Shown here in pieces: positions 23,603 through 63,900 of a stretch of 64,000 nt of DNA (position 1 is the stretch's first letter; each line of letters opens with the position of its first letter). This DNA comes from Candidatus Poribacteria bacterium (GTDB lineage: Bacteria; Poribacteria; WGA-4E; PCPOR2b): positions 3,392,001 through 3,456,000 of the forward strand of contig OZ220744.1 of NCBI GenBank assembly GCA_965116925.1, read 5' to 3'. A model generated the notes under the pieces. It was not told the origin of the DNA and ran no database searches. It saw only the letters and a list, made by a program, of their open reading frames with translations. Both the position numbers and the translations under genes were made by a program.

Positions 23603-23717
23603 ATGAAGATTAATTTATTAATTGGGTAATTTCCGAGCGATGTCCGGTGCGGTTGGAAACCGCACCTACCGGGTCTGGGGAAATATAGAATTACCCGTTT
23701 AATTTCTTAAAACCCAT
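23603..23717. mobile_element. MITE family C (ATGAAGATTAA...CAT, ~28-bp imperfect TIRs)
   Basis: Identical copy at 63295-63409; a copy with one difference at 51072-51186. Related copies: 24450-24684, 24503-24619, 50821-50937, 56062-56178, 60871-60987, 62090-62206, 19772-19918, and a partial ending at 18471. Confidence 0.9.
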
Positions 23718-23987
23718 ACAGATTGTGGCACAAAATCACAGACATACAGCAAATTGTAAAATCAACTCAACCCGCCTGATTTTATCCTATCATTCCTTTA
23801 ATGGTCGTATCCTCTTGGCTCCGGTTAAAATCTCCTCAGAAATCTTAGACATTCTTGAAAAAGAGTTGAGACCGTGATATGATAACCCAAGTTTCTCAGG
23901 CGTATCGACATTTATATGAGGTGTATCCGTAATTCAAGGCCTGGTATTGCTGGATACTGATGTTTACCCAATCGTAGGATCTTTTTT

Positions 23988-24038
23988 CGTAGGGGCGAGG
24001 TTTCCTCGCCCAATGGGTTGGGAGACCCAACCCCTACG
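23988..24038. repeat. GTAG-type REP doublet (REPIN-like)
   Basis: CGTAGGGGCGAGG-TTT-CCTCGCCC...GGGTTGGG-AGA-CCCAACCCCTACG. Similar copies near 61075 and 63485; halves near 18520, 55040 and 56874. Confidence 0.75.
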
Positions 24039-24734
24039 CATTCAACAGGTGTCCAGACAGTTTTTTCGCAGATGGAACACTCTCGGAATAGAGACATATT
24101 ATTCCTCTTTAGCCTCAGCGGGGCGATATGTATATAGCAAACTAGTTGTTGTTCTGGTGTTTGTCTGAATCGTGAGACGAAGCGTAATAGGTAATGCGGG
24201 CATCGCAGATTAGGCAATCTGCGCCACGATTGGCATCATTTGCACGACTACTGGGATTCTATAACATAAACCAAGTCGTTAGAATCAGACAGAAACCGAG
24301 TTTTGAAGAAAAAACTCGGTTTACAGTGCTTGGTCTATCAACTAGCAACTTGCGTTAATATACAAGATTCACCATCTCAATGTACCAATGAACTAACGAA
24401 CTGTAGTGGATCTTAGAATTAATGAGACACTCCAAACCGGTGCGGTTGCATGAAGTTTAATTTATTAGTTCGGTAATTTGCTAGCGACATCGGCGCGGTT
24501 GAATGAAAATTAAAAAAATAATTCGGTAATTTGCTAGCGATGCCGGCGCGGTTGAAAACCGCGCCTACCGTATGTTTCGAGGCAAATCGGGATTACCGAT
24601 TTAAATACTTAAACTTCATAAAACCGCGCCTACCGTGTGTTTCGAGGGAAATCGGGATTACCGATTTAAATACTTAAATCTCATCAAACCGCACCTACCA
24701 TCTCAATGAACCAACCATATAAAGGAGTATAATC

Positions 24735-25670
24735 ATGGGTCAAACAATGCGGTATTTGCCTGACGGTCGTATTGAACTTATTGGACAGGACGTGCCCGAT
24801 CCGGGTGCGAATGAGGTGCAGGTCACAGGGGGCGCGTGCGGGATCTGTTCGTGGGATTTGGTGACAGCTAAGCTGGGCGATAAGATGTCTCCCATGGCAC
24901 CGCCCGGACACGAAGGGGTCGGTTATGTGAGCAAGATCGGCGCGGAGGTCACCGGCGTGAAGGAAGGCGACCGCGTCGCAGGTGGCGGTTTTGCGACGGT
25001 GCGAAATCTGTCAGCGGAAAGGTTGTACAAGATCCCAGAATCTGCAAAGCCCGATGAACAGTGGATTGTGGAGCCTGTATCTTGTGCGGTCACGGGAGTT
25101 GATCACTGCCAGATCAGAGGTGGAGATCGGGTTGCTGTTGTCGGCTGCGGGTTCATGGGCTTACTGATTACGCAAGGTTTGCTGCACCACCCACTTGACC
25201 AACTGATCGCAATTGATGTGGTGCAGAACCGTCTGGAGGTGGCAAAGCAGTTTGGTGTGGACGAGGTGTATAACACAACCGAAGTCGATACGACTGAACT
25301 GGCGGCAGACCTGAAAGCGCGGGAGATTGATGTGGTTGTGGATACGTCGGGACATCAGGGCGGGCTGGATCTCGCCACCGATATTGTCAAGCGGGGTGGA
25401 CGGATCAATCTGTTCGGATGGCTCAAGGGCGATACTGCGACCTTTGATCCGACCAAATGGCACATGGGCGGGTTTACAGTTGTCAATTCGTCGCCATCAT
25501 CGAAGATCCGTGACACCTTTGAAGCCGCTATCCGAATGATACATAACGGCGTGTTCGATCTCGAACCGTTGGTCACGCACACGGCGACGTTGGAGGAGTA
25601 CCCGAATCTGATGCAACGGCTTGTAGCGGGCGATTCAAGCTATATTAAAGGTGTGATTACACTCGGATAG
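24735..25670 (+). CDS. Zinc-binding (MDR) alcohol dehydrogenase
   Basis: CGIC.WD, GHEG and V.V.GCG.MG motifs; the structural-zinc four-Cys loop is absent. Confidence 0.9.
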   Translation: MGQTMRYLPDGRIELIGQDVPDPGANEVQVTGGACGICSWDLVTAKLGDKMSPMAPPGHEGVGYVSKIGAEVTGVKEGDRVAGGGFATVRNLSAERLYKIPESAKPDEQWIVEPVSCAVTGVDHCQIRGGDRVAVVGCGFMGLLITQGLLHHPLDQLIAIDVVQNRLEVAKQFGVDEVYNTTEVDTTELAADLKAREIDVVVDTSGHQGGLDLATDIVKRGGRINLFGWLKGDTATFDPTKWHMGGFTVVNSSPSSKIRDTFEAAIRMIHNGVFDLEPLVTHTATLEEYPNLMQRLVAGDSSYIKGVITLG

Positions 25671-25961
25671 TTCGTGCCGATTTAGTTTACTAGCAGGAAT
25701 TACGCACTTCAGATTGTAGGGAACGCAGATCTGCGTTCCCTACGAATTACAAGGGCTGAATCATCATTACGAAGCGTTAACGTATCCAACTGCATAAGTC
25801 CTAACTAGTTCATTAATGAACCAATATACGTTTTGCACTTTCTTTTTACACTCATGTTAAGAAATTGTGCAACAGAAACCGAGTTTTGCCGAAAAAACTC
25901 GGTTTCTCTTCGTGTTTTGCACTTTCTTTTAACATGAACTGAATCAAAAAGGTACTATGCT

Positions 25962-27014
25962 ATGACAGCGAAGACATTTCCGAAAGTGGAGTGGGAGGTT
26001 GCTCTCCCTTCCGACGTGGGGATAGATGCTGAGAAATTGAACCTGGCCAAGGGGTGGCTCGATTCAAAGTTTGCAGATGACAGATACCGCATAGCGATTG
26101 TGCGGGACGGCTATCTCGTGGCAGAATGGACACATAATATCCTAAGTGGGGAAAAGCATCACATCGCCTCTGCCAATAAGTCGATCCTGTCCAGTATGCT
26201 CGGCATAGCGGTTGAGGAGGGCAAAATCGGAAGTGCCGACGATCTCGCTGTGGACTACTATCCTGAGCTGATGGAGGTGCCGGAGGGCGAAGGTCCCAAG
26301 GAGGGGCGGTGGGCATTTGAGGCGAATCGTGGGATGACGCTTCGACATCTGATCTGCAATGTATCGGGATATATGAAACCGGGTGAAGCACCGGGACAGG
26401 TGTTCAATTATCAGACCAACGGGATGTGTGTGCTTTCGCACTGCATCGAGAAAGCGTATGGGTTGTATGATGTCAATCGTCCGGAGGAATCACCGAAGAT
26501 TTCACCGCTTTACAAGGAGAAGATCGCTGATGTGATTGGTGCGGATTGGGAGTATAGATCGAGATCCCAACAGATGCACGATAAAGCGCGGCTCCACATC
26601 TTTGGGTGGGGTTCGGAAATTCTCACCAGTCTGCGAGCGTTGGCACGGTTGGGTTGGCTCTGGTGCAACTGGGGCAGGTGGGAAGGGAGGTCCGTAATCC
26701 CCGAAAGCTGGCTACGCGAGGCAACTGCTGTCGCGCCCGATATTCTGGCGAACAGTCCTGAGAATATGTGGCGGTACGGACACGGATTTTGGACAAATCA
26801 AAAGGGCAAACTCTGGCACGATCTGCCAAGAGAGGGGTATGCCGCTTGGGGTGCGGGTGGGCATTATGTGGTTGTGTTTCCGAGCTACGAACTTGTCGTA
26901 GTGATGAATCCCACGCCCTATCCGGGATCGTCGCAGCCTTACGAGACGCATACCGTCACATGGTTACAGCAGCAAGAGGTTTTGAGGCTGATCCTCGATG
27001 CGTGTGAAGCGTGA
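25962..27014 (+). CDS. Serine hydrolase, beta-lactamase/class C-like
   Basis: SANK (SxxK) and FNY..N motifs. Confidence 0.85.
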   Translation: MTAKTFPKVEWEVALPSDVGIDAEKLNLAKGWLDSKFADDRYRIAIVRDGYLVAEWTHNILSGEKHHIASANKSILSSMLGIAVEEGKIGSADDLAVDYYPELMEVPEGEGPKEGRWAFEANRGMTLRHLICNVSGYMKPGEAPGQVFNYQTNGMCVLSHCIEKAYGLYDVNRPEESPKISPLYKEKIADVIGADWEYRSRSQQMHDKARLHIFGWGSEILTSLRALARLGWLWCNWGRWEGRSVIPESWLREATAVAPDILANSPENMWRYGHGFWTNQKGKLWHDLPREGYAAWGAGGHYVVVFPSYELVVVMNPTPYPGSSQPYETHTVTWLQQQEVLRLILDACEA

Positions 27015-27094
27015 AACGTGAAACGTAACGCACTAAGTAGATACTGATTTACTGCACAAGAAACGGATTAAGTATTTAGCCAGTGGATAAATGC

Positions 27095-27427
27095 TTAATC
27101 TGAATCCTTACTTTTACGATCTGGTATAAGCTTATTCAGAATCAATCGAATGTCCGCTCGAATCTCATCAAATCGTCTATCAATAGCATCAAATCGTCTA
27201 TCAATAGCATCAAATCGTTTATCGATAGTCTCAAATCGCCTATCGATAGTCTCAAATCGTCTATCAACAGCCTCGAATTGTTTATCAACAGCCCCGAATC
27301 GTCTATTAACATCATTACGGAAATCATCAATGCGTTTGTTGGTTTGTCGGTTGACATATATCACAATGCCCCCAACACCAACAACAATTGACACGATGAT
27401 TGTAAGTGTCTGTCCCCAATCATTCAT
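27095..27427 (-). CDS. Membrane-anchored heptad-repeat coiled-coil protein
   Basis: N-terminal TM helix, (D.RF..I/V)n encoded by 21-nt repeats, AGGAGG RBS. Confidence 0.8.
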   Translation of the reverse strand: MNDWGQTLTIIVSIVVGVGGIVIYVNRQTNKRIDDFRNDVNRRFGAVDKQFEAVDRRFETIDRRFETIDKRFDAIDRRFDAIDRRFDEIRADIRLILNKLIPDRKSKDSD

Positions 27428-27453
27428 GTGTTTACCTCCTTATTAACTTTAAC

Positions 27454-27482
27454 AATATACATCAATTATATCCTACTGTCAA
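27454..27482 (-). promoter_or_regulatory. Sigma70-like promoter
   Basis: TTGACA-17 nt-TATATT upstream of the RBS of 27095..27427. Confidence 0.6.
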
Positions 27483-27509
27483 GAACAAAGATAAGTCCAC
27501 TTCTAGTGT

Positions 27510-27670
27510 CGTAGGTTGGGTTGAACGACAGTGAAACCCAACATCGTTGGTTGAAGTCCTAACTCCGTTGGGTTTCACTCAAATCTATTTATAAGTAAAG
27601 TATTGTTGAAAGACGAGACCGTTATTTTCTTTGATAGGGATTGGGGTAGAACCGTTCAACCCAACCTACG
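27510..27670. repeat. REPIN-like element with perfect CGTAGGTTGGGTTGAACG inverted ends
   Basis: Inverted ends are visible directly; right halves recur at about 51035-51257 and 58995-59099. Confidence 0.75.
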
Positions 27671-27857
27671 GGCTCGATGCGTGTGAAACGTAATGCGTAA
27701 AACGTGAATGAACTATAGTAGATTTTAGAATTAATGAGACACTCAAAATCGGCGCAGTTGGAAACAGCGCCTACCAAGCATGGGGAGCGAAAGTGTTTAT
27801 TTATTTTTTGAATTCACTATAATGAACCAATGAACCAGCAGAATGAGGAGGTTAGCG

Positions 27858-29054
27858 ATGACCGAATCAAGGAAGCGAGAGCTACAAGCAGAACTAGATA
27901 GCATGACCGTCCATCAAGAAACGCGGGTTGGGTGGGATGAAAATACGCCGCCCAATGAAACCTTAGATCAATATGGCAACCTCTTGGCGAGAAATCGGGG
28001 GGTGGTGCCGGTGCCGGACAATCGATCCCCCAAGCGTCGGGTGTACGATGATCCGAGCGTCGAGGCACTACGGGCACACCTCCGAGAACATAACGGGATT
28101 CGCGGTCTCGAAATCTGCGACCCCAGCGAGGTAGAGCGTGCCGCTCGGATTTTCCGTCGAGACGGCTTCGTGGTGGTGCGCGATCTGCTCAACGCGGAAC
28201 AGCTAGCGACTTGGAGGGCAGGCTGCGCCGAGGCACTGAAACAGATCTTGGAAACCCCCGGTCCGGGAGAGCGGAAATATATGACCGAAACCGGACGGCT
28301 GCCACACCGATACAGCTACGGCACCTGTTCCGCTTCGAGGCAGATGCTCCACCATCCCGCCTGGGCGCATATGATCGACCTGCCGACGACCACGCCCATT
28401 GTCACGGAGATCTTCGGTTCTTCCGATTACCGCGTTTGGGGTTCTGGTGGCGATCTCTGTCTGCCCGGCGCAGTCGAATATCAACACCTCCACTCCGACG
28501 GCAGAGACGGACAGCACCTCTCAGAGGCGCGCATCGAGCAGGCACGACGGGTGGGGGTTGAGTTCGATACCGACAGCTCGGGCAACTTGGATGTGCCGAC
28601 AATCAAGTTGATTATGGAGATGACACCGCCGACGGTAACCATCAACTTCTTGATGGCGGACCTCACGTGGGAGAACGGTCCAATTCGTCAGATTCCGGGG
28701 ACGCATACCGCGCAGCAGCCACCACCGATAACCGACGATGAACCCGATTGGATGCGACATTCAACGCTCGTCGGTGCCCCCGCGGGTGCCGGTGTTTTCC
28801 GCGATAACCGAGCGTGGCACGGTGCAACCCCCAATCTGTCCAAAGAGGTCAGGTCGCTGCCAAACGTCGAGTATGCCGCCCCGTGGCGCACGCGGGACGG
28901 GTTTAAGGTGGTCATGCCCCATGAGATGTGGGAAACAATGACACCGCACGGCAAGAAATTGTGCGACTGGATCAAGGCGGAGCCGGGCGTTTGGCCCCCC
29001 GGTGCCGGTATCATGCACCCGCTCGCAGGTGCGCGCGAAGAGGCAGCAAAGTGA
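27858..29054 (+). CDS. Phytanoyl-CoA dioxygenase (PhyH) family protein
   Basis: F.RDGFVVV, HSD, ENGP...PGTH and WHG motifs. Confidence 0.88.
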   Translation: MTESRKRELQAELDSMTVHQETRVGWDENTPPNETLDQYGNLLARNRGVVPVPDNRSPKRRVYDDPSVEALRAHLREHNGIRGLEICDPSEVERAARIFRRDGFVVVRDLLNAEQLATWRAGCAEALKQILETPGPGERKYMTETGRLPHRYSYGTCSASRQMLHHPAWAHMIDLPTTTPIVTEIFGSSDYRVWGSGGDLCLPGAVEYQHLHSDGRDGQHLSEARIEQARRVGVEFDTDSSGNLDVPTIKLIMEMTPPTVTINFLMADLTWENGPIRQIPGTHTAQQPPPITDDEPDWMRHSTLVGAPAGAGVFRDNRAWHGATPNLSKEVRSLPNVEYAAPWRTRDGFKVVMPHEMWETMTPHGKKLCDWIKAEPGVWPPGAGIMHPLAGAREEAAK

Positions 29055-29096
29055 GTGATGCGTGAAACGTGAATCAACTGATGCACTAATGAACTT

Positions 29097-29208
29097 GGTT
29101 CATATCAAAAGAAAGTGCAAAATGCAAAGAGAAACCGAGTCTTTTCGGAAGTACGGGCGGGGTAACCCCGCCCCTACGGTTTCTTTGCACTATTTCTTAA
29201 CATGAGCC
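29097..29208. mobile_element. MITE family G (GG(C/T)TCAT...ATGAGC ends, 8-bp TSD, IS1595-like)
   Basis: Flanked by ATGAACTT direct repeats. The copy at 61035-61166 is flanked by TTTATTTT. A third copy lies at about 25851-25939. Confidence 0.7.
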
Positions 29209-29232
29209 ATGAACTTATTTAGGAGGCAACCC

Positions 29233-30273: not shown

Positions 30274-30401
30274 CGATAATATGTAGGAATGAGGAGGCGA
30301 GGAAGCGGGGAAGCGAGGAGGCGGGGAAAGATACTCGCTCCCTCACCCCCACGCTCCCTCGTTCACTCCCTTACGCACTGTTCTTCTAAGGAGATTAGTC
30401 T

Positions 30402-31619: not shown

Positions 31620-31802
31620 GTTAGTTCACTAGTGCTGCCAAATGTAGCGCGAACTGTTAGTTTGCGGCGTGGGATCACAATCTAACAGATCGTGGTACAA
31701 CAGACTTCTATGAAATAAGTTTGGGTGTCAAGATATGAATCTCGACCTACAATTGGCTAGTTGATTTAATGAACCGATGAACAAATATGGGAGGGAATAC
31801 CG

Positions 31803-34742: not shown

Positions 34743-34754
34743 AAAGAGATAAAA

Positions 34755-44362: not shown

Positions 44363-45064
44363 ATGAAAAATCAACCCAATCCCAAAGACGACCTAAACGC
44401 GATTTTGGAAATCCTTCGTGAGATAGCAGAAAAATCAGAGGGTGGTAACTACATCTATCGTGGCGAACCTGACATTTATGACAGAGTGTCGTCAAGCCTT
44501 TGGCGTGTGTGTAAAAGAAAAATGAAGACAGAGAACTTTGATATACAGGCTATTGAAGATTCAATACTGGAGTCGGTAAAAAACTATACTTCCGAACAAG
44601 AGGAGATTGAAATTTGGGCTGAACTCCAACACTATGGGGGGCACACCAATCTTATAGACTTTACAACCGATAACCACATAGCCCTCTTCTTTGCCTGCGA
44701 TCGCTTCTTTGACAAACCTGGCAGAGTCATTTTTTTGGGAGAGGAAGCGCAGAACGAGAATCAAGTTAAGGAAAAACCTCAGAACCCACGAAACCGCATC
44801 ATAGCTCAGAAGAGTATATTCATTCGACCACCTACAGGAGTTGTTGAGCCAGACGATGTAATCACTATCCCGGCACATCTCAAACAACCCATATTAGGCT
44901 ACTTGAACAAACATCACGGTATATCTACGGAAACCATCTACAACGACCTCCATGGGTTTATTAGAAATCAGGACATGCACCAGACTGTCTCTATAGCGTT
45001 TTATGTTGGGTCAATCCAGCAATACACAGGAGAAGCGGAGAATGCAGACACAAGCGAAACTTGA
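44363..45064 (+). CDS. FRG domain protein
   Basis: YRGE, LQHYG..T.LIDFT....ALFFAC and RIIAQKS.F motifs. Confidence 0.88.
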   Translation: MKNQPNPKDDLNAILEILREIAEKSEGGNYIYRGEPDIYDRVSSSLWRVCKRKMKTENFDIQAIEDSILESVKNYTSEQEEIEIWAELQHYGGHTNLIDFTTDNHIALFFACDRFFDKPGRVIFLGEEAQNENQVKEKPQNPRNRIIAQKSIFIRPPTGVVEPDDVITIPAHLKQPILGYLNKHHGISTETIYNDLHGFIRNQDMHQTVSIAFYVGSIQQYTGEAENADTSET

Positions 45065-45941
45065 GCATTACGATAAGGCAATTGAGCACTATAGCACAGC
45101 AATAGCATTGCAACCCAATTTTGTCATCGCCTACAACAATCGCGGCATTGCTTACGCCGATAAAGGTGAGTATGACCTTGCCATTGAAGACTTTAACACG
45201 GCAATCAAGCTGAAACCGGACTATGCGATTGGCTACAACAATCGCGGGACTGTTTACCGCATCATAGGTGAGTATGACCTTGCCATTGAAGACTGTAATA
45301 AGGCGATAGCACTCGATCCCGGTTATGCTGAACCTTATAGCAATCGTGGTGCGGCTTATCGGGAAAAAGACGAGGAGGACCGCGCGATTGCCGACTATGA
45401 CAAAGCGATAGAACTAAAACCCGATTTTGTCGAGGCATACTATAATCGCGCGATTGCTTACACCAAAAAAGGCAATTTTGATCGTGCCATCGTAGGTAAT
45501 GCCAAGACGATAGAATTGGAACGTGACCTCGTTGGGGCTTATAGCGAGCGTGGTGAAGCTTATCTCGAAAAAGGCAATTTTGACCATGCTATTGAAGATT
45601 ATACCAAAGCGATAGAACTGAAACCTGACCTTGCCGAGGCTTATAACAATCGCGGTCATGCTTATAGTAAAAAAGGCAATTTTGACCGTGCGATTAAGGA
45701 TTATACCAAAGCGATAGAACTGGAATGTGACCTTGTTGAAGCGTATAGTAATCGTGGTGAAGCGTGGCTACACCTCGGAGAATGGGAAAAAGCCAAGTCA
45801 GACTTGACGACTGCCAACGATATGGGACAGGATATCATTGGCTCATTTCAAAATGACTACGAAAACGTTGCACACTTCGAGGGTAGAAATGGGGTGAAGC
45901 TCCCGGCAGACCTCGCCGCAATGCTGACACCCCCGCGATAA
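45003..45941 (+). CDS. TPR protein, possibly the frameshifted continuation of the FRG gene
   Basis: 34-aa AYNNRG.AY..KG.YD.AI.D..KAI.L.PD repeats; overlaps the FRG ORF. Confidence 0.8.
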   Translation: MLGQSSNTQEKRRMQTQAKLEHYDKAIEHYSTAIALQPNFVIAYNNRGIAYADKGEYDLAIEDFNTAIKLKPDYAIGYNNRGTVYRIIGEYDLAIEDCNKAIALDPGYAEPYSNRGAAYREKDEEDRAIADYDKAIELKPDFVEAYYNRAIAYTKKGNFDRAIVGNAKTIELERDLVGAYSERGEAYLEKGNFDHAIEDYTKAIELKPDLAEAYNNRGHAYSKKGNFDRAIKDYTKAIELECDLVEAYSNRGEAWLHLGEWEKAKSDLTTANDMGQDIIGSFQNDYENVAHFEGRNGVKLPADLAAMLTPPR

Positions 45942-46041
45942 ACATCACCGCCGATGTTTTTTTTATCCGTGCAATCCGTTAATCCGCGACAATCCGCGAT
46001 TCAGACAGTGAAGAAATCACCATTGCGTGAGAACAAAAAGT

Positions 46042-46887
46042 ATGGCAGAAAAAGCGTCGAGCCGTGTCAAAACGCTGAATAGTTTTATCAAATGGGCAGC
46101 ACAATTCAATGACGGGCAATATCTGTTTCGGGGTGTTTCAAACGAGTCCTACGGAATAGAAGCGTCTGCCTATCGCCGCTTACCAGAAGCACAAAGAAAT
46201 AATCCGGCTCGACTCCTCCGAATCAATCAGGACTTAATAGAAAAAGCGCGTCTCCTAGGGCACGATCAGAAAAACGGGCAGCGACTTTCGGATCTGGAAC
46301 TCCTTGCAGAACTACAGCACTTCGGCGCAGCTACCTGTCTGATAGACTTTACTCGCAACGCACTAGTCGCGCTCTGGATGGCCTGCCAACAAAGTACCAC
46401 CGGGGAAGCAAACGGCAAAGTTATCGCTGTGCGTAGCGATGAATCTGCTCGGCTAGAAACGATTACTCCCAAATTGGTAACGGACGAAGATATTGATTAC
46501 TTTTTTAGGAGAGATGAACGTAGGGGATATCCACTCTACCAATGGCAACCCAAGTACCAGAACAACCGCATTATCGCCCAGCAATCCATCTTCATTTTTG
46601 GCGGTGCCCAAATTGAGACAGAGGCCGAGTGTATCATCCTAAAAAGTAGTAAGGAAGATATTCTGACATCTCTGGATAAAATATCAGGAATCACTGAAGG
46701 AAGCATCTACCCTGACTTTGACGGTTTTGCACGCCAACATGCCCATAATAAACCTTACGTTGAAGCTGACCCGGAAGACCTTATGCAACGAGGTGTTGAG
46801 GCATACCTAGAAGGTAGACTAGATGATGCTATTGACCGCTACAATGAAGTTATCTCGTTACTCGACCCGGAAGGAGATTTAGAATGA
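46042..46887 (+). CDS. FRG domain protein with C-terminal TPR-like helices
   Basis: LFRG, LQHFGAAT.LIDFT and NNRIIAQQS motifs. Confidence 0.88.
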   Translation: MAEKASSRVKTLNSFIKWAAQFNDGQYLFRGVSNESYGIEASAYRRLPEAQRNNPARLLRINQDLIEKARLLGHDQKNGQRLSDLELLAELQHFGAATCLIDFTRNALVALWMACQQSTTGEANGKVIAVRSDESARLETITPKLVTDEDIDYFFRRDERRGYPLYQWQPKYQNNRIIAQQSIFIFGGAQIETEAECIILKSSKEDILTSLDKISGITEGSIYPDFDGFARQHAHNKPYVEADPEDLMQRGVEAYLEGRLDDAIDRYNEVISLLDPEGDLE

Positions 46888-48125
46888 ATTCACAAAGTAT
46901 TGCTTCTTACCTTGAGGTCCCCTCGTTACCACCGGATAAACTTACCCTCGCTAGGGCATACTACAGTCGCGGCCTTGCCTACGACGCTAAAGGGGATTAT
47001 GACCGTGCCATCGCAGACTTTACCAAAGCGGTAAAACTTAAACCCAATGATGCCAATACCTATTACAATCGCGGTATTGCTTACTACGCTAAAGGCGATT
47101 TTATCAATGCTATTGAGGATTTGAACAAAGCGATACAACTCAAACCCAATGATGCCCAATCCTATAACAATCGCGGTATGGCTTATGAAAAAAAAGGCGA
47201 TTTTGACCGTGCTATCGCAGATTTTACCAAAGTGATAAACCTGAATCCCAATGATGCCTACGCCTATAGCAATCGCGGAAATGTTTACTACGAAAAAGGT
47301 GAATATGACCGTGCAATTGAAGACTTTAACACAGCGATACAACTCAAACCCAATATCGCCGAAGTCTACAGTAATCGCGGTAATGCTTACAACAGTAAAG
47401 AGGAATATGACCGCGCCATTGAAAACTTTAACACAGCGATACAATTCAAACCCAGTCTCGTCGAAGCCTACAGTAATCGCGGTAATGCTTACAACGGCAA
47501 AGGTGAATATGACCGCGCTATTGAAGATTACACCCAAGCGATACAGCTTAAACCCGATTATGCCCGTGCCTACAACAATCGCGGGGAGGCTTACAACGGC
47601 AAAGGTGAATATGACCGTGCAATTGAAGATTACACCCAAGCGATACAACTCAAACCCGATTTTGCCGAAGCCTATTACAGTCGCGGAGTGGCTTATTGTT
47701 ATAAAGGCGAATATGACCGCGCCATCGAAAACTTTAACATAGCGATACAACTCAAACCCGATTTTGCCGAAGCCTATTACAGTCGCGGGGAGGCTTACTA
47801 TCGCAAAGACGATTATGACCGTGCAATTGAAGGTTACACCAAAACGATACAACTCAAACCCGATTATGACCTTGCCTATTTCAGTCGTGGGGCGACTTAC
47901 TACAGCACAGGCAATTTTGACCGTGCCATTGAAGATTATAACGTAGTTATAAACCTGACCCCTGATTACGCCAGTGCCTATTTCAATCGCGGGTTGGCTT
48001 ACTACAGCAAAGGCGATTATGATCGTGCAATTGAAGATTATAAGACGGCAATACAGCTAAATCCCCATGATACCCAAGCCTATACCAATCTTAGGATTGC
48101 TTACGAAAAAAAAGAGAAGTCATAA
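46884..48125 (+). CDS. TPR protein with about 11 highly similar repeats
   Basis: 102-nt tandem repeats; ATGA overlap with the FRG gene. Confidence 0.92.
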   Translation: MNSQSIASYLEVPSLPPDKLTLARAYYSRGLAYDAKGDYDRAIADFTKAVKLKPNDANTYYNRGIAYYAKGDFINAIEDLNKAIQLKPNDAQSYNNRGMAYEKKGDFDRAIADFTKVINLNPNDAYAYSNRGNVYYEKGEYDRAIEDFNTAIQLKPNIAEVYSNRGNAYNSKEEYDRAIENFNTAIQFKPSLVEAYSNRGNAYNGKGEYDRAIEDYTQAIQLKPDYARAYNNRGEAYNGKGEYDRAIEDYTQAIQLKPDFAEAYYSRGVAYCYKGEYDRAIENFNIAIQLKPDFAEAYYSRGEAYYRKDDYDRAIEGYTKTIQLKPDYDLAYFSRGATYYSTGNFDRAIEDYNVVINLTPDYASAYFNRGLAYYSKGDYDRAIEDYKTAIQLNPHDTQAYTNLRIAYEKKEKS

Positions 48126-49924: not shown

Positions 49925-50704
49925 ATGATGTGTATAACGGGTTGTGGAGGGGCAAAAAATTTGCCTCCCTATACTCACAACGTGAAGTGGGGTTATGCAG
50001 CAGAGAATGGACCGGCTGTTTGGGGGCGGCTGAGTCAGGAATACATCCTTTGCGGCGTGGGGACACACCAATCACCGATCGACATTGTGAACCCCATACC
50101 AACCGAACTGCCGTCTATCTCTTATGAGTACCACCCTGCAACGGGTGTGAACATCCACCATAACGGACATACGATTGAAGTGGCGTATCCTGAAGGCAGC
50201 GGCATCCAGATCGATGGCACCGACTATCAACTGCTCCAGTTCCATTTCCATGCACCTGGCGAACATACGGTAGACGGTAAACCGTTTGACATGGAAATGC
50301 ACCTTGTTCACGAAAGTGAAGATGGCAATTTAGCAGTCGTTGGTCTGTTAATCGAGAGTGGTCATCACCATCCCGCATTTGATCCAATCTGGGCATCTTT
50401 ACCGTCCACGCCGCTCGAAACACAGCGTATTGAGAATGTCACTGTTGATTTGCCTATGATGTTGTCGCCAAATAGACAGGTACTCGACGAATCAGTACAG
50501 GCTTTTCCCAGCACCTACCGCTACAACGGTTCACTGACGACCCCGCCGTGTTCAGAGGGAGTCAAATGGATTGTACTAACAACGCCCGTTGAGATGTCTG
50601 AATCGCAAATTGCGGCATTTAAGGCGATTATCTATGGCAACAACCGGCCGGTACAGCCACTGAATGGACGTGAACTGCTCCTTGATGCCACAGGAGTGCC
50701 GTAA
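49925..50704 (+). CDS. Alpha-class carbonic anhydrase (start uncertain)
   Basis: QSPIDI, QFHFH...EH, EMHLVH, GSLTTPPCSEGV.W and NNRPVQP motifs. Confidence 0.95.
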   Translation: MMCITGCGGAKNLPPYTHNVKWGYAAENGPAVWGRLSQEYILCGVGTHQSPIDIVNPIPTELPSISYEYHPATGVNIHHNGHTIEVAYPEGSGIQIDGTDYQLLQFHFHAPGEHTVDGKPFDMEMHLVHESEDGNLAVVGLLIESGHHHPAFDPIWASLPSTPLETQRIENVTVDLPMMLSPNRQVLDESVQAFPSTYRYNGSLTTPPCSEGVKWIVLTTPVEMSESQIAAFKAIIYGNNRPVQPLNGRELLLDATGVP

Positions 50705-51263
50705 ATTATTTCGCCCCATGTAAAAAGAAAACGCAATAAGAACCTACGCACATGGTCAGAAAATAGGGTATAATAACCCAAGTTGCTAGTACATTGTCAG
50801 ATGAATGTAGCGCAAACTGTATGAAGATTAAAAAAACAGTTCGGTAATTTGTTATGGACACCGGCGCGGTTGCAAACCGCGCCTACCGTGTGTTTCGAGG
50901 AAAATCGGGATTACCGAATTAATAAATTAAACCTCATTTAGTTTGCGGACTCGGATCACAATCTAACAGATTGTGGTACAGAAGATTCGTTTTATGAAAT
51001 AAGCTTTTGAACAGGAGACTTCCCGATGACAAACGGAGTTGGGTTTCACTCTATCTGTGTATCAACAACAGATGAAGATTAATTTATTAATTAGGTAATT
51101 TCCGAGCGATGTCCGGTGCGGTTGGAAACCGCACCTACCGGGTCTGGGGAAATATAGAATTACCCGTTTAATTTCTTAAAACCCATGTGTTGTTGAACAA
51201 CTAAGCCTCTCTTGTCGTTGATAGGGATTGGTGTTTAACCGTTCAACCCAACCTACGGACTGA

Positions 51264-51500
51264 CAGGGACCTGCCAAATCCCTGACATTTGGCGAGGTTA
51301 TGGTGCCATTTCAGTGAAAAACCGTTCATAAACAGTGCGTATTTGTCAGGTCAAAAAGCCGTTTGGGCGCACCTTCTGTTGCGCGGTAAAAATCTACAAA
51401 TGCTTTGAAGCTAGGCCCCATCAGGGTTCAGAGAAACATCGGCTAATGATGAACCCCCCGATGTGAGGTTGAATTTTTTTTTAGACCTGACAGGGCCCTG
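51264..51500. mobile_element. Possible 237-bp MITE with CAGGG.CCTG.CA inverted ends
   Basis: CAGGGACCTGCCA...TGACAGGGCCCTG; single copy, no target duplication seen. Confidence 0.4.
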
Positions 51501-51616
51501 ACAAATCGCCGAATCGACCTACAAAAATCGTTGTCAGTTTCCCGTTTTCCGGTTATCTCGTTCTCTCGTTTTCCTCCGTGTAATCCCTTAATCCGTGACA
51601 ATCCGCGATTCTGACA

Positions 51617-52459
51617 ATGCAGAAAGGAGATGGCTCGGTGAGTATGAAAAAAGACTTGGAATTTGATTATCAAGCGTATCTGAAGGAAAATCCGCCAGAT
51701 CTCAGCAAAATCCATCGGGGACCAGAGGCGCGTCAAAAGCGACGCGAAGCCGTTCTCCATAACAATCGTGGGGTGGCTTATGCGAACAAGGGCGATTATG
51801 ACCTTGCGGTTGAAGCGTTTACGAATGCGATAGCACTGAATCCGAACCTTGCGCTGGCGTATAGCAATCGTGGCGGTGCTTACCGCGACAAAGGGGACTA
51901 CGACCGCGCCATCGAAGATTGCAACAAAGCGATAGAGTTGAACCCTGACCTCGCTATGGCGTATAACAATCGTGGCGGTGCTCACGAGCGCAAAGGGGAT
52001 TATGACCGTGCCATCGCAGACTTGAGCAGAGCGATAGCGTTCAAACCCGATCTCGCAGAGGCTTACGGGAATCGTGGGAGTGCTTACGCGAAGGTGGGGA
52101 ATTATGACCTTGCCATCATAGACTATACCAGAGCGATAACGCTGAATTCCGATGCCGCCCAATCCTATAACAATCGCGGTGTGGCTCACTACAAAAAAGG
52201 GGATTATGACCGTGCCATCGCAGATTATACCAAAGCGATAGAACGCAAGCCCGATTTTGCCGAGGCACATTACAATCGCGCCGAAGCGTGGTTACATCTC
52301 GGAGAGTGGGAGAACGCCAAATCAAATTTAACCGTTGCCCTAGCGATGGGAGTAGACATCATCGGTGGGTTTCGTAACGAATACGCCAGCGTCCCGGACT
52401 TTGAGCGGAGAAATGGGGTGAAGCTCCCGGCAGACCTCGCCGCCATGTTGACACCCTAG
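51617..52459 (+). CDS. TPR protein (start uncertain)
   Basis: TPR repeats; C-terminal cap RNGVKLPADLAAMLTP shared with 45003..45941. Confidence 0.88.
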   Translation: MQKGDGSVSMKKDLEFDYQAYLKENPPDLSKIHRGPEARQKRREAVLHNNRGVAYANKGDYDLAVEAFTNAIALNPNLALAYSNRGGAYRDKGDYDRAIEDCNKAIELNPDLAMAYNNRGGAHERKGDYDRAIADLSRAIAFKPDLAEAYGNRGSAYAKVGNYDLAIIDYTRAITLNSDAAQSYNNRGVAHYKKGDYDRAIADYTKAIERKPDFAEAHYNRAEAWLHLGEWENAKSNLTVALAMGVDIIGGFRNEYASVPDFERRNGVKLPADLAAMLTP

Positions 52460-54401: not shown

Positions 54402-54420
54402 CCATCGCGGCGGAAAAATC

Positions 54421-55981: not shown

Positions 55982-56263
55982 AACGTGAAAAATGCACTAA
56001 TGAACCAATGAACTATAGTAGATTTTAGAATTAATGGGACACGCCAAACCGGTGCGGTTACATGAAAATTAAAAAAATAATTCGGTAATTTGCTAGCGAT
56101 GCCGGCGCGGTTGAAAACCGCGCCTACCGTATGTTTCGAGGAAAATAGGGATTACCGATTTAAATACTTAAACTTCATCAAACCGCACCTACCGGGGGGC
56201 GCGAGTGTTTCTTTATTTCTTGAATTCACTATAAATCAGTTTCTATCTTATAGGTTACCCATC

Positions 56264-57225: not shown

Positions 57226-57488
57226 CTTTGCCTGAAACGCAAAGTAGTAGGCATACTCCGTATGCCGTAACCGCAGTTAAACCAATGCACAAATGAACCA
57301 ATTTATAGTGGACCTTAGAATTAATGAGACACTCCAAATCGGGAGGTTAGGAAAACGAAGATACCGTTCTACCGTTTGGTAGGCGCTGTTTATAACTGCG
57401 CCGATGCGGTGCGGTTACAAACCGCACCTACCGGGTGGCAAAAGTGTCTATTTATTTTTTAATTTCAATTTAGAAAGGAACTCATAGG

Positions 57489-58973: not shown

Positions 58974-59100
58974 GGAAGCGTCCCGATGAAAAACGGAGTT
59001 GGGTTTCACTCTATCTGTCTAGAAGCAGGTGTTGTTGGACGCCGGAGTCTCTATTGGACTTGATAGGGATTGACGGTTAACCGTTCAACCCAACCTACGG

Positions 59101-59266
59101 ACTGTTAGTTTGCAGGTGAGGATCACAATCTAACAGATCGTGGTACAAAGGTAGATTGTAGGTCGAGATTCATATCTCGACAAAACTGTTAGTTTGCAGG
59201 TGGGGATCACAATCTAACAGATCGTGGTACAAAGGTAGATTGTAGGTCGAGATTCATATCTCGACA
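59101..59266. repeat. Two tandem 84-bp units made of REP-like hairpins
   Basis: Units start at 59101 and 59185 and are nearly identical. Related composites at 54885-54975, 63745-63835 (reverse) and 31643-31700. Confidence 0.85.
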
Positions 59267-59311
59267 TAAGACTCATATCCAAAGGTCTCCGACAATGGAG
59301 GAGAGGCAATT

Positions 59312-59854
59312 ATGCTGCTGCGCTTTGTCTGTGTTGCGTACCTGTCACTCCTACTATCCGGGTGCGCTGCTCCCATACCTCAACTTGACGTGACGCCCGA
59401 ACAGATGAACGGGATCGATCGGTTGATTGGCGAGAACTTCTTAACCTTTCACGCCGATATCGAGCCGATACTGGGAGAAGCGCGGAAAACGATAGAAAAC
59501 GACACGCCCACTTACGACTTTGGAGATAAATATCGGTTCAGAGGCTTAACCGCGGGCATTCTGAACGACAAAGTGGCAATGCTCTCGTTCTATGCTCATA
59601 GACGGCTCACCCCGCACGAAGCGATTTATGCGTTAGGCTATCGGGAGTTGCCCGAATTTAGTTGGATTGATGGTAGACCCGTGTATATGCTCAACACGGA
59701 GAACGGCAAGCGCATCTTCTTTATAGTCCAACAGTCAGGCTGGACATTTGTCCGCATCTTCTCCAATGCACTCGATGTAAAAAAGCATTTCAACCTACAA
59801 ATCACACCATTTCCATACCCGTCATTCTATTTTTCTGAATCCAACAATCGTTAG
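59312..59854 (+). CDS. Putative lipoprotein
   Basis: LSGC lipobox; GGAGG RBS. Confidence 0.75.
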   Translation: MLLRFVCVAYLSLLLSGCAAPIPQLDVTPEQMNGIDRLIGENFLTFHADIEPILGEARKTIENDTPTYDFGDKYRFRGLTAGILNDKVAMLSFYAHRRLTPHEAIYALGYRELPEFSWIDGRPVYMLNTENGKRIFFIVQQSGWTFVRIFSNALDVKKHFNLQITPFPYPSFYFSESNNR

Positions 59855-59894
59855 TTCATTGGTTCATTAGTTCATTGAGTTTGCTCATCATGTT

Positions 59895-60758
59895 TCATTG
59901 AATGACCTGAATCCCAAGCTCCGCTGCGGTCCGATGGAGGAAATCACTGACCTCCGGCAATTGTTCCTCTTGGGCACCTTCGACAATCAACGGATACTCT
60001 GGATCGAGCGCGTGCATTCGGCGGATATAGGCTTTGAAATCGAGCATTCCCGTTCCGGCTGCACAGGTCGGCAGGTGGAGGGTGTGTTCGTTGGTGAGCG
60101 TGATGTCCTTCGCATGGCCACTCACAATATGTTGACCGAGCGTGTCGAATATCCGATCGATGTATTCTCCGGTGTTGTAGACCGTTTTGAGCGTTACCCA
60201 GTTTGCCGGATCCAGATCAGATCTGACCCACGGTGAATCGACCGCATCAAGAATCTCCTTCGTGACCCTCTCATTTGCAAGCACGACGAGTTGATGCCCT
60301 TCTAGACTGAGGTAAACCTGATTATCCGCTGCTGCTTTCGCGCACTCCCGCAGACTCTTGATTAGCTGATCCTTGCTTTTTTGACTCCAGTTGTCGGGGT
60401 GCGGATTCCACGGTCCTGTTGGGTTCATCGATCCCGGTCCCGTGTCGATGCCACGCGCCCCAATATCGCCGGCAACTCGGAGTGCTTCCTGTACCGTACG
60501 CACCGCTTTCTTTCGCTCTGTCTCGTCGGGGTGGATCAAGCACTGCCAATAGCCCGTCGTTTGATACATCCGAATCCCCTCATCCGCTAGGACATCGCGG
60601 ACTCGGTGGCATTGGGCGGTTGTTGTTTCAAATGGATCGTTCTCTCGAAAACGGGTGAACACCCCTGAAAATCCGAAGGATCTGGCCTTCTTTGCAATCT
60701 CCGGTGTGAAGTCATCCATATTACTCGGCAAAAATGTTCCGCTCATTCCAAAACGCAT
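59895..60758 (-). CDS. Sugar phosphate isomerase/epimerase (AP endonuclease 2 TIM barrel)
   Basis: LSLE, LDPAN, HAKD and G.G.LDF motifs. Confidence 0.88.
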   Translation of the reverse strand: MRFGMSGTFLPSNMDDFTPEIAKKARSFGFSGVFTRFRENDPFETTTAQCHRVRDVLADEGIRMYQTTGYWQCLIHPDETERKKAVRTVQEALRVAGDIGARGIDTGPGSMNPTGPWNPHPDNWSQKSKDQLIKSLRECAKAAADNQVYLSLEGHQLVVLANERVTKEILDAVDSPWVRSDLDPANWVTLKTVYNTGEYIDRIFDTLGQHIVSGHAKDITLTNEHTLHLPTCAAGTGMLDFKAYIRRMHALDPEYPLIVEGAQEEQLPEVSDFLHRTAAELGIQVIQ

Positions 60759-61204
60759 AGTTAGCTCCCTAAATTGGTTCAAGAGTTCATTGGTTCATTA
60801 TAGTGGATCCCAGAATTAATGAGACACCGTAGCGCGAAGTGTTAGTTTGCGATAGAGGATCACAATCTAAATGAAGATGAATTTATTAATTCGGTAATGT
60901 CCGGGCGATGTCCGGTGCGGTTAGAAACCGCACCTACCGGGCCTGGGGGAAAATATAGAATTACCGAAGTATTTTCTGAAACCTCATACAGATTGTGGTA
61001 CAAAAAACTTCTACTTTTAATGTCTATTTATTTTGGCTCATGTAAAAAGAAGGTGCAAAACACGAAGCGAAATCGTAGGGGCGGGGTCTCCCCGCTCGCC
61101 GTAAGGGTTGGGAGACCCAACCCCTACGAATATTCGGTTTCTTTGCACTAAATCTTAACATGAGCGTTTATTTTTATAATTCACTATAGTTCATTTTTCA
61201 CGTT

Positions 61205-61939
61205 TCATTCGTCCTGAATGACATGGGGACGATTACCGATAGAGGGTGGGGATAGAATCCGTTTTTGCTGTTCCGTCAACTCGCCAAACTCGCTGAGGTC
61301 GTAGAAGTTTCCAGACCATGCGGAGTGTCCGGGGCTGTATTTGTAGAGCAACGATCGGCGCTCGTGTGCTGCGCGCCACGGCATTGTCCCGTGGATGACC
61401 GCTTCGGTGAAGAAGATCACATCCCCAGCCTTGGCATCCGGCTGGACAACGTAATGTGCGTCCCTCTCGAAACTGCGTACGTCTGTGGGTAGATAGGTGG
61501 CGAAGTTACTCTTGTGGCTACCCGGTATGCACGAGAATCCGCCATCGCCTTCCCCGACATCGGATAGGCAGTAGGTCATCACAATCAGTCCATTTCGGAT
61601 GACCCCATCTCGGTATTTGTACCAGTGATCTCCTTCGGGTCCCCCGGCACGACCGCCATCCTCTCCGCCGTGCAATCTCCCGCGATGTTCGCCTTGACTC
61701 ATGAAGATAGCGTAATCGTGATCGAGGCGGAATGTGGGACCCAGCAATTCAATGAGGTAGGGCAGGATCTTCGGATGGTCAATCAGCTTCTTGAAGGGTG
61801 CACCCCAGCGCGTCGGATGGCCAGAGCGGTCCCCCTGATCAATGATCTTGTTCAGTTCGTCAACTTCGTTAGATGCCAGCACATCTTTGATGACCAGATA
61901 TCCTTCGAGATCGACGAGGAATTTTTCTTCGTTTGTCAT
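61205..61939 (-). CDS. PhyH family Fe/2OG enzyme with HxG in place of HxD
   Basis: DLEGYLVI, LHGG, DGGF..IPGSHK and AGDVIFFTEA..HG motifs. Confidence 0.85.
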   Translation of the reverse strand: MTNEEKFLVDLEGYLVIKDVLASNEVDELNKIIDQGDRSGHPTRWGAPFKKLIDHPKILPYLIELLGPTFRLDHDYAIFMSQGEHRGRLHGGEDGGRAGGPEGDHWYKYRDGVIRNGLIVMTYCLSDVGEGDGGFSCIPGSHKSNFATYLPTDVRSFERDAHYVVQPDAKAGDVIFFTEAVIHGTMPWRAAHERRSLLYKYSPGHSAWSGNFYDLSEFGELTEQQKRILSPPSIGNRPHVIQDE

Positions 61940-62357
61940 GATAAAAATCCTTTTCTTAAATCTGTGTGCTGCCAGCAATTTAGGCGATTGTAGGTCGATT
62001 TTGGAAAATCGACAGTCTTGCTGTAATCATCGGGCAATCAGACATAAGTAGTGCAAACTGTTAGTTTGCGGCAGAGGATCACAATCTAAATGAAGATAAA
62101 AAAAACAGTTCGGTAATTTGCTAGCGACACCAGCGCGGTTTCAAACCGCGCCTACCGTGTGTTTCGAGGAAAATCGGGATTACCGATTTAAATACTTAAA
62201 TCTCATACAGATTGTGGTACACATGTAGCGGAAAGTTCTGTGTCGAGACATGAATCTCGACCTACAGGTGCGAATGAATTACTATACACAGCGTAGACAC
62301 GCTCTGTCCTGCCATTATTTGCACAAGGGTTACGGCATACGGAGTATGCCTACTACT

Positions 62358-63164
62358 TTAACGCAGATCCTGCAACTGGGTGATAGGTCCCGTATTGCCG
62401 AAACCCAGCTCAATGGCTCGCTCCATCATCTTTTGGCGACGGGGACCTGCGGTCGAAATTAAACGGTCGCTGTAGAATCGTCCCCAACCCTTCGTTTCCC
62501 CAGCGAGAAAGGTCATAAGCCAGTCGAAATGTTCCCGGTTTTTCTCAGGCGTTGTGTTCGGGACACAGTTGATGTGGATAGCGCGTCTGCCATACTTGTC
62601 ACTCAGGGCGGCGTGATAGGTCTTGTGATTCATAAAGAGCACGTCCCCCGGTTCGTTGCAGAGCGGATAGCGTCCCGGCATCTCGTCGGGAAGCGCACCG
62701 AGTTCATCTCTCATCTGGTTGATTGCTTCCCCAAACTCCTTGAAATGGCTGCCGGGGATGACGGTCAGGCATCCATCTTCAGGACCGAGCGGATCCAGAT
62801 AGATCGCCGCCCGCATACTGAAGTAACCCTCCGGGGCGTAGGCATCGTGATGCCACGGGGAGCCGCCGGTATGGATAATCCCTTCGCTAAGGGTCAGGAT
62901 GAAGTCTTCGCCCATCAAGCCCTCAAAAATGTCTACGATTTTCTCATGGTCTAACAGAGGATAAAGCACTTCTGGGTGGTAGTCGAAGAAGGGGACAATC
63001 TGCTGTCTTTTTTCTCCCGGTTGCGGTGGTGGTGCGTCCTTGCGTGCCAACTGCATTCCTTCATCGAAGGCGTTGGAGATTACCGCCATCTCCTCCGGTG
63101 ACAGCAAGCCCTTGTACTGAATAAATCCGAACCGCTGAAAATATTTAATATCTTCCTGAGTCAT
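62358..63164 (-). CDS. PhyH family dioxygenase
   Basis: F..FGF, WHHD, GCL.VIPGSH and PGDV...H..YHA motifs. Confidence 0.88.
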   Translation of the reverse strand: MTQEDIKYFQRFGFIQYKGLLSPEEMAVISNAFDEGMQLARKDAPPPQPGEKRQQIVPFFDYHPEVLYPLLDHEKIVDIFEGLMGEDFILTLSEGIIHTGGSPWHHDAYAPEGYFSMRAAIYLDPLGPEDGCLTVIPGSHFKEFGEAINQMRDELGALPDEMPGRYPLCNEPGDVLFMNHKTYHAALSDKYGRRAIHINCVPNTTPEKNREHFDWLMTFLAGETKGWGRFYSDRLISTAGPRRQKMMERAIELGFGNTGPITQLQDLR

Positions 63165-63900
63165 AGTTTTTTCCCGTATATAATAACGCAAGTTGCTAGT
63201 TATAAAACCCGCTCGGCTCCGACTTCGCCAATCCGTTCTTAGGACTTCAATTTATCGGCAGTACTTGGCTCTGGCTATACACATTGCGCTCCTCATGAAG
63301 ATTAATTTATTAATTGGGTAATTTCCGAGCGATGTCCGGTGCGGTTGGAAACCGCACCTACCGGGTCTGGGGAAATATAGAATTACCCGTTTAATTTCTT
63401 AAAACCCATCTGGAGCGCGGGGATCGAACCTATTGCGGTTCTATAGACATATCGCTCCTCTGGAGCGGAAGCAAAACCCGAAATCGTAGGGGCGAGGTTT
63501 CCTCGTCCATCGGGTTGGGAGACCCAACCCCTACGGATTCAAACTCCCATCCTCTCGTCTTCTCCTTGTTTCTCTTTGCATCCTTGCGCTCTTGCGTTAA
63601 ATTGTTTTTTATAGTAGATTTTAGAATTAATGGGACACGCCAAACCGGTGCGGTTACAAACCGCACCTACCGGGGAGGCGCAAGTGTTTCTTTATTTTTT
63701 GAATTCACTATAATTGCATCAATGCACCAATAACACCATTTGGTTGTCGAGATATGAATCTCGACCTACAATCTCCTTTTGTACCACGATCTGTTAGATT
63801 GTGATCTCAGCCTGCAAACTAACAGTTTGCACTACTTATGGCGGATTACCTGATAATTACAGCATTTACCGAATAAGCAGCTTCAAAGTGTCAACACGCC

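Follow-up and report, generated by a model that had tools for sequence, protein, structure and literature searches.

Short non-coding repeats of 115-117 nt, found at the centres of palindromes in the genome of a Candidatus Poribacteria bacterium, are derivatives (MITEs, for miniature inverted-repeat transposable elements) of a 1241-bp insertion sequence (IS), whose 384-amino-acid protein is a DDE transposase of the IS630/Tc1-mariner lineage. The repeats were studied in a stretch of 64,000 nt (hereafter the window; G000:C1:3392001-3456000, on a single 6.47-Mb contig); they are a genuine feature, with recent activity, and occur widely among Candidatus Poribacteria. The explanation that we favour, with a probability of roughly 70%, is that this transposase moves the elements onto the dyads of palindromes, the target being captured as the tip of a hairpin or cruciform, or as an equally distorted dyad.

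Insertion at the centres of palindromes

An earlier note on this DNA had listed nine intact copies at palindrome centres, with the central base repeated on both sides. We recovered all nine with the coordinates and flanks that it had given, and 9/9 are centred on short palindromes (Table 1). The window copies are 115 or 117 nt long, with the ends ATGAAR...CAT. A profile built from eight of them gave 335 matches in the genome, corresponding to 261 non-redundant ones, 95 of which are full length. These were compared with 200,000 random pseudo-insertions, a site being counted as palindromic when at least 7 of 9 flank pairs were complementary around a 3-nt loop. Palindromic flanks were observed in 87/95 full copies (0.15% of the random control), a repeated junction base, i.e., a last left-flank base identical to the first right-flank base, in 76/95 (26%), and both together in 72/95 (0.04%). 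Only 8/95 copies lack a palindrome in register.

The repeated base can be any of the four (G 26, C 25, A 16 and T 9 among the 76 sites). For each of the 95 sites the empty target was reconstructed and its exact 21-nt string (11+10 nt) was sought elsewhere in the genome; a match was obtained for 59/95 sites when one base was removed, for 8 when none was removed and for 0 when two or three were removed. A duplication of 'exactly 1 nt', as first claimed, fails for 19/95 copies; orthologous empty sites give 1 nt at two odd palindromes and 0 nt at two even ones (see below).

Most of the insertions arose independently of one another: the 95 copies comprise 64 distinct 9+9-nt flank pairs, 66 distinct outer-flank contexts and 33 distinct stem-and-loop combinations; the largest outer-flank context, a composite one in which both outer flanks are shared, holds 25 of them. 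Eight 115-nt copies are 100% identical and lie in five different stem types, which bears out the earlier remark on identical copies in different targets, and the stems are indeed unrelated, at least 12 types being used in this genome alone. A GTAG or GTAC tag stands beside the stem in 63/87 palindromic sites. The insertions thus lie inside intergenic palindromes of the repetitive extragenic palindromic (REP) type, as expected of the functional class of REP-loop-targeting IS; as many of the targets are tagged REP-like repeats, the element also targets REP loops. Not all targets are repeats, site 4904154 being a unique hairpin.

The autonomous element and its transposase

The earlier note had placed the transposase outside the window and had proposed a search for a longer element with the same ends around a reading frame. 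There is, in fact, no copy of the 1241-bp element within the 64-kb window, and two were found in the genome, inserted in and splitting two MITE copies (G000:C1:4122211-4123451, plus strand, and 1430426-1431666, minus strand; 98.6% identical). Both bear the terminal inverted repeats of the MITE (~28 nt) at each end, both sit in the loop of a MITE's internal hairpin, and each contains one reading frame of 384 amino acids. The short repeats share these ends, which supports their earlier description as a MITE; they are short and non-coding, occur as 95 full copies of 115-117 nt and have the flank pattern of the 1241-bp element.

We assign the 384-amino-acid protein to the IS630/Tc1-mariner lineage because of its Pfam domains and of its predicted fold. 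Pfam identifies DDE_3 at 1.3e-19 (71 bits, cut-off 28.6) and, in residues 29-143, HTH_32, HTH_29, HTH_28 and HTH_23 over their cut-offs. An AlphaFold model, for which 41 homologues were used, averages 73.7 in pLDDT, and its best Foldseek matches are Mos1 transpososomes (4u7b, 3hos and 5hoo, E ~3e-6 to 9e-6), the catalytic domain of Sleeping Beauty (5cr4) being matched as well. The sequence search of solved structures returned a Sel1-repeat protein as its sole match, which we regard as spurious.

A DDE core with an RNase-H-like fold, a bipartite helix-turn-helix (HTH) region at the N-terminus and a single transposase gene between terminal inverted repeats in an element of ~1.1-1.3 kb are all as in this lineage. 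Two other traits depart from it. Insertion is not at TA with a 2-bp duplication, any base being duplicated and removal of two bases restoring 0/95 empty sites, and 60 residues separate the second catalytic aspartate from the glutamate (D273 to E334). The expected IS630/Tc1-mariner spacing from the second D to the E/D is ~34-35 residues. The element is not of the IS200/IS605 type, nor the protein a REP-associated tyrosine transposase (RAYT), as the protein is a DDE_3 one and the element has inverted repeats and a 1-nt duplication.

Relatives in the phylum and a TA-using contrast

Homologues of the transposase are numerous (669 at E <= 0.001, many on contigs of exactly 1241 bp), and all the homologue loci in named genomes (12/12) are labelled Candidatus Poribacteria. 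A match at E <= 1e-20 is present in 40/176 genomes of the phylum, this genome and some distant relatives included. The flanks of full-length elements were listed in 60 rows, which correspond to 30 distinct flank pairs, each on both strands; counting as palindromic those with at least 6/9 complementary pairs, and with this genome's copy and one spurious pairing (locus L024) among the 30, the full-length elements have palindromic flanks in 25/30, a one-base repeat in 21/30 and both in 19/30. Further stems are used in those genomes (CCCCCCTT, TCGGGGTT, GAATGCC, TCACCCC and GTCCC), and insertion at hairpin centres persists down to 57% protein identity (loci L045 and L046). In some copies (L001, L028 and window 19772-19918) the two flanks come from two different hairpins, as recombination or deletion between copies would leave them. 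A scan of metagenomes for relatives yielded 4 loci only; in the one with 46% identity the end of the contig cuts off the left end of the element and the target could not be read.

A more distant relative of ~1.23 kb (35-38% identical; loci L051-L055), with 3 copies in genome G104 and 2 in G092, has the ends ATGAAC...GTTCAT and is flanked on each side by a duplicated TA, set in C-TA-G, the canonical IS630 pattern. The ends that we assign to the hairpin-seeking element gain support from this relative, whose termini are homologous to them. In the protein alignment, the second D and the E are 35 residues apart in the TA-using relative and 60 residues apart in 10/10 proteins of the hairpin clade. 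The difference is due to a conserved insertion of ~25 amino acids at about residues 289-316, just before the LPTYA-W-NPIE motif, and the segment that comprises it (residues 286-317) is mostly coil in the AlphaFold model. We infer that this insertion is a candidate determinant of the changed target choice.

The 115-nt form of the MITE is also present in other species of the genus (G058, G059 and G005; e.g., G058:C2:2301223-2301339), where it is 97-99% identical, and the unique DNA that flanks it is only ~77-90% identical. This difference in identity suggests that the form may have spread recently between co-resident lineages.

Parity of the palindrome and the target duplication

Orthologous empty sites were sought in congeners of the genome under study (G000). 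At site 930113, the closest relative (G005) has CATCGTTTATAACGATG, i.e., the left and right flanks minus one base, one A being duplicated, and at site 4926031 both G005 and G004 have GGCATACGGAGTATGCC, again the two flanks minus one base, with one G duplicated. Site 1421130, a perfect even palindrome, corresponds in G005 to TCAATATCAATTGATATT, which is exactly left plus right flank, with no duplication. The same applies to site 3027907 (GTCGATTTTCCAAAATCGAC in G005), where the apparent 1-nt repeat of this genome is a coincidence, because the centre is an even 'CC'. Two more sites are empty in congeners and have a diverged loop: the unique, non-repeat hairpin at 4904154 (empty in G002, G003, G004, G061 and G001), in which the duplication is unreadable, and site 2957470 (empty in G005, G004 and G008).

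All the readable sites (4/4) fit a parity rule, according to which the element enters on the dyad, an odd palindrome gaining 1 nt and an even one 0. The insertion point is not a fixed offset from the stem, since it tracks the dyad whether the central unpaired stretch has 0, 1, 2, 3 or 5 nt. From a duplex-bound transpososome of fixed geometry a single stagger would be expected; that the target sets the stagger points to an attack on each strand at its own loop apex. This dependence on parity is our main argument for an extruded target.

Sequence preference at the hairpin

The earlier note had also held that the MITE inserts 'regardless of sequence', which is right as regards the many unrelated stems and too strong as regards the base that closes the loop. 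In a census of the genome we counted 1483 perfect hairpins (7-bp stem and 3-nt loop), which belong to a few large families, themselves non-independent data points; the counts by closing base 5' of the loop are: T, 66 filled and 427 empty; C, 19 and 366; A, 2 and 238; G, 0 and 452. T or C thus precedes the loop in 85/87 filled hairpins, and in other genomes, too, T or C closes the stems in which full-length elements sit. The same unevenness is seen in the 5-mers beside the loop, some of which are filled (CGGTT, 42 filled and 196 empty; GCTCC, 11 and 133; AATCT, 10 and 37) and others never (TTGGG, 141 empty; CGGGG, 103; CGAGG, 49; TCGGG, 48). Targeting is not sequence-blind. DNA triloops closed by a 5' pyrimidine and a 3' purine are markedly more stable than those with the reverse closure, and triloop stability would fit a structural reading of the closing-base bias.

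The two MITE subfamilies also differ in their targets: 117-type copies occupy 50 GGTT/AGTT and 5 CTCC hairpins, and 115-type copies 0 and 10, respectively (Fisher p = 1.7e-8). Different transposase variants, or different periods of activity, are possible reasons.

How the palindrome may be recognised

We hypothesize that the 384-amino-acid transposase moves the element and its MITEs by cut-and-paste, ignoring TA and capturing the tip of an extruded hairpin or cruciform, or an equivalently distorted dyad. Each transposon 3'-OH would join the loop apex on its own strand: in an odd loop at the phosphate 5' of the central base, which would produce the 1-nt stagger, and in an even loop at the central phosphate, which would give a blunt join. 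The clade-specific insertion of ~25 amino acids between the second catalytic D and the E may determine the changed target choice. Insertion into intergenic REP-like loops, among them that of the hairpin carried within each MITE, would spare genes and also build nested arrays such as that at window positions 24450-24684. Taken in its stronger form, in which a DDE enzyme of Tc1/mariner lineage has swapped the TA rule for recognition of DNA shape at hairpin tips, with the stagger set by the parity of the target and not by the enzyme and with the ~25-amino-acid loop as mediator, we consider the proposal to be evenly balanced between right and wrong. The element itself, the family of its transposase and its pattern of insertion are established by the data; the recognition of extruded hairpins and the role of the insertion are inferred.

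Several points weigh against this explanation. Short GC-rich cruciforms form poorly in vivo, and the two tips of a cruciform would probably lie far apart for the compact pair of active sites of a Tc1/mariner enzyme. Extrusion of the target is deduced from the sequence pattern, and the ~25-amino-acid insertion is linked to target choice by correlation only. Among the 95 copies, 8 have no palindrome in register and 19 have no duplication; five insertions (3 in this genome and 2 in other genomes) have a 3-nt loop and no duplication. The G005 site with the CC centre (3027907) could be an excision footprint and not an ancestral even site. The difference in targets between the subfamilies is unexpected from one sequence-blind enzyme, and the regional strand bias of copies and empty hairpins, described below, is not predicted by a symmetric DDE reaction.

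Some of the 19 duplication-less copies are even palindromes. In three in this genome, and likewise in the two elsewhere, the 3-nt loop is intact and the element lies between its bases 1 and 2, which is comparable with the imprecision of ISY100 in vitro, 3/39 of whose products are reported to have TA at one end and A alone at the opposite one (PMC2170065). The remaining cases, in the main REP family, can each be read as the left half and the right half of two known loop types, and such half-loop joins would fit exchange between copies. The 4-nt loops that these main-REP copies would otherwise imply do not exist empty in the genome.

Excision footprints were considered separately: the main REP family has 3-nt (184) and 4-nt (10) loops and no 5-7-nt loops, so no footprint signal was seen.

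A less likely, though serious, alternative is that a transposase dimer reads B-form duplex, through a weak symmetric motif (pyrimidine, three bases, purine) and deformability, the arms being incidental and supplied by abundant REP-like repeats, with no extrusion. The closing-base bias does show a sequence component, the canonical IS630 target C-TA-G is already palindromic, and many transposases are described as favouring palindromic consensus sites, in keeping with the two-fold symmetry of the complex (PMC2577343). Such a five-base motif would, however, be far commoner outside palindromes, and yet arms of unrelated sequence are complementary over 7-10 bp in 87/95 sites, as against 0.18% of genome positions. 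Moreover, insertion follows the dyad at central spacers of 0-5 nt, with no fixed offset from a motif, and a stagger that depends on parity is hard to square with a rigid duplex-bound complex.

Regional strand bias

The MITE copies are not evenly oriented along the genome: 46 are on the minus strand and 2 on the plus strand at 3.0-3.4 Mb, 61 are plus and 10 minus at 3.4-5.0 Mb, and beyond 5.0 Mb they are mostly minus again. The first switch falls within or just beside the window (about window positions 1-24000, genome ~3.37-3.42 Mb). Empty REP hairpins have the same regional bias (68 to 8), and five other repeat motifs switch orientation likewise (almost all minus at 2.8-3.4 Mb and plus at 3.4-5.0 Mb). 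Crude gene calls have no such bias; at 3.2-3.4 Mb 72% of the genes are on the plus strand, versus 18 minus elements and 1 plus. In the core region the regional orientation is followed by 33/35 MITEs and by 31/35 target REPs; in the 6 discordant cases the region is followed by 4 MITEs and 2 REPs, and the orientations of MITE and REP were not separable.

As to replication, the GC skew changes sign near 3.4 Mb and is inconsistent elsewhere, being positive at 2.0-2.8 Mb though the copies are mostly minus there. Matches to the dnaA family lie at 4.98 and 6.05 Mb, the gene at 4.979 Mb being near the second switch.

This bias, shared by the empty REPs and absent from the crude gene calls, would speak for a single-strand route, tied to replication, that moves or at least orients the MITEs: an HUH tyrosine transposase associated with REPs would act on the tagged REP-like hairpin that each MITE contains, and the IS630-type element would merely share the ends. 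We consider this route improbable, considerably more so than the reading of duplex DNA discussed above, given that full-length elements without the internal REP target alike in many genomes, that terminal inverted repeats with a short duplication typify DDE chemistry and not HUH elements, and that the 6 discordant cases do not separate the orientation of the MITE from that of the REP. Least probable is the absence of any targeting, with the arms as variable long inverted repeats of the element itself, or with a small number of ancestral insertions carried along by their host repeats or multiplied by gene conversion. In its favour, 25/95 copies have both outer flanks in common and chimeric flanks show recombination between copies; it is largely refuted by the orthologous empty sites, and empty alleles of most targets, paralogous ones included, the 66 contexts and 33 stem-and-loop combinations, a duplicated base that tracks the loop variant and identical copies in 5 unrelated stems also speak against it.

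Comparison with known systems

The present element resembles the IS630/Tc1-mariner elements (IS630, ISY100, Mos1 and Sleeping Beauty) in its single transposase, paired N-terminal HTH, DDE_3 core, ~28-nt repeats and MITE derivatives. It differs from them in that it enters the dyads of palindromes and duplicates 1 nt, which may be any base, or 0 nt, and in the 60 residues, instead of 35, between the second D and the E. Tc1/mariner transposition is described as occurring 'exclusively into TA', IS630 and ISY100 duplicating TA (2 bp), with a normal TA duplication in 34/39 ISY100 products (PMC2170065). The family has already been described, but no member of it that targets hairpins or duplicates 1 nt came up in a literature search, which left ISfinder and TnPedia outside its scope.

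In integron attC systems and in the IS200/IS605 group with RAYT/REP, HUH or tyrosine recombinases act on elements without terminal inverted repeats and no duplication is made; strand bias in IS200/IS605 is linked to replication. These systems recognise folded hairpins and not sequence, a hairpin being also the target proposed here; in contrast to theirs, the present protein is a DDE_3 one.

Insertion sequences that enter REP loops have been reported in five families, IS3, IS110, IS4, IS256 and IS5 (Tobes and Pareja, PMC1525189), and IS630 is not mentioned in that survey (the term occurs 0 times). Like the REP-targeting IS (IS1397 and ISKpn1 of IS3; IS621, ISPpu9, ISPpu10 and ISPa11 of IS110; ISRm22 of IS4), which thereby spare genes, the present element enters intergenic REP hairpins. 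Each of those IS is known to recognise a single REP type, and in the IS110 group RNA is the guide. In contrast, at least 12 unrelated stems, including that of a unique non-repeat hairpin, are used here.

Two further systems have comparable targets. For IS1272 (IS1182 family) of Staphylococcus aureus, new insertions at inverted-repeat structures, without target duplications and in an inverted-repeat-replacing mode, have been reported (PMC5678879); the inverted-repeat targets are shared with the present element, whereas the transposase belongs to another family and here the arms are kept intact on both sides. Transposition by RAG1/2 is stimulated by hairpin targets, and the sequence of the tip alters its efficiency more than 100-fold (PMC1618415). 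RAG1/2 is likewise a DDE-type enzyme, and its tip-sequence effect parallels our closing-base bias; it is, however, a eukaryotic recombinase of another fold family studied in vitro, with no natural genome-wide pattern. The duplication made in RAG transposition is longer.

Strict TA targeting has its textbook example in the Tc1/mariner and IS630 elements, which also serve widely as tools for gene delivery. With a natural member that disregards TA in favour of hairpin tips, the choice of target would prove open to rewiring in this fold, with the ~25-amino-acid segment as a candidate for the rewiring, and one protein with two 28-nt ends would be a two-component system in which to study how a DDE enzyme reads DNA structure. 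If our proposal is true, the enzyme is a natural, protein-only, structure-directed 'safe-harbour' integrase. It would also explain the build-up of nested repeat arrays and of REP-plus-MITE composites in the genomes of sponge symbionts with genes undamaged. For annotators, the 'inverted repeats' that flank such elements are those of the target and not of the element.

Copies, empty targets and other features of the window

Empty alleles of most targets had been noted in the window, and we located those of three hairpin types (Table 1). The nested copy divides the outer one (24450-24684), at the loop of the hairpin that the latter contains, into 24450-24502 and 24620-24684. Additional to the nine copies already listed are two on the minus strand, a truncated copy and a variant element. 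The two flanks of the variant are outer arms that belong to different, adjacent hairpins, an arrangement expected after a deletion between two copies. Next to both minus-strand copies lie coding-looking repeats of 126-nt period (window 18838-19700; families D3, D4, D6 and D8).

Table 1. MITE copies, variant element and empty target hairpins, in window positions.
Feature	Position	Strand	Target and remarks
Truncated MITE copy, profile positions 1-78	18396-18471	-	left flank is a CACAATCT hairpin arm
147-bp variant element	19772-19918	-	MITE's ends; unrelated interior without REP hairpin
115-nt MITE copy	23603-23717	+	in CACAATCT-AAC-AGATTGTG hairpin; A duplicated
Outer 117-type MITE copy	24450-24684	+	in GGTGCGGTT hairpin; C duplicated
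Inner (nested) 117-nt MITE copy	24503-24619	+	in outer copy's internal GGCGCGGTT-GAA hairpin; A duplicated
Empty CACAATCT-AAC hairpin (target allele)	31676-31694	.	more empties at 50957, 54917, 59124 and 59208
117-nt MITE copy	50821-50937	+	in GCAAACT-GTT-AGTTTGC hairpin; T duplicated
115-nt MITE copy	51072-51186	+	centre of TCAACAACA-G-TGTTGTTGA; G duplicated
117-nt MITE copy	56062-56178	+	in GGTGCGGTT-ACA hairpin; C duplicated
117-nt MITE copy	60871-60987	+	in CACAATCT-AAC hairpin; A duplicated
117-nt MITE copy	62090-62206	+	in CACAATCT-AAC hairpin; A duplicated
115-nt MITE copy	63295-63409	+	in GCGCTCC-TCT-GGAGCGC hairpin; C duplicated; among the genome's 8 identical copies
Empty TCGCTCC-TCT-GGAGCG hairpin (target allele)	63452-63467	.	
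Empty GGTGCGGTT-ACA-AACCGCACC hairpin (target allele)	63647-63667	.	second empty at 57408-57428

The region 50400-51700 of the window was compared with its orthologue in G005. Single insertions were unreadable there, as this closest relative lacks an entire 530-bp cluster of hairpin repeats together with two MITEs (window 50730-51260) and has 28 bp instead; intergenic repeat clusters turn over as blocks. In public sequencing data (four runs) the contigs end at every repeat and none spans a MITE site; a single contig joint touches the edge of a MITE, 63294 to 63439, and one side of it, 21 nt long, lies in a repeated hairpin arm, so that these data are uninformative on polymorphism.

The window was also scanned for tRNA genes and Rfam families; none was found in it, and the idea that the element targets or contains a tRNA or another RNA of known family was rejected. 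Long arrays of 102-nt tandem units (18 copies, 60-71% identity) occupy window positions 45063-48107 and 51791-52294, and a 21-nt tandem array of 7 copies lies at 27147-27335.

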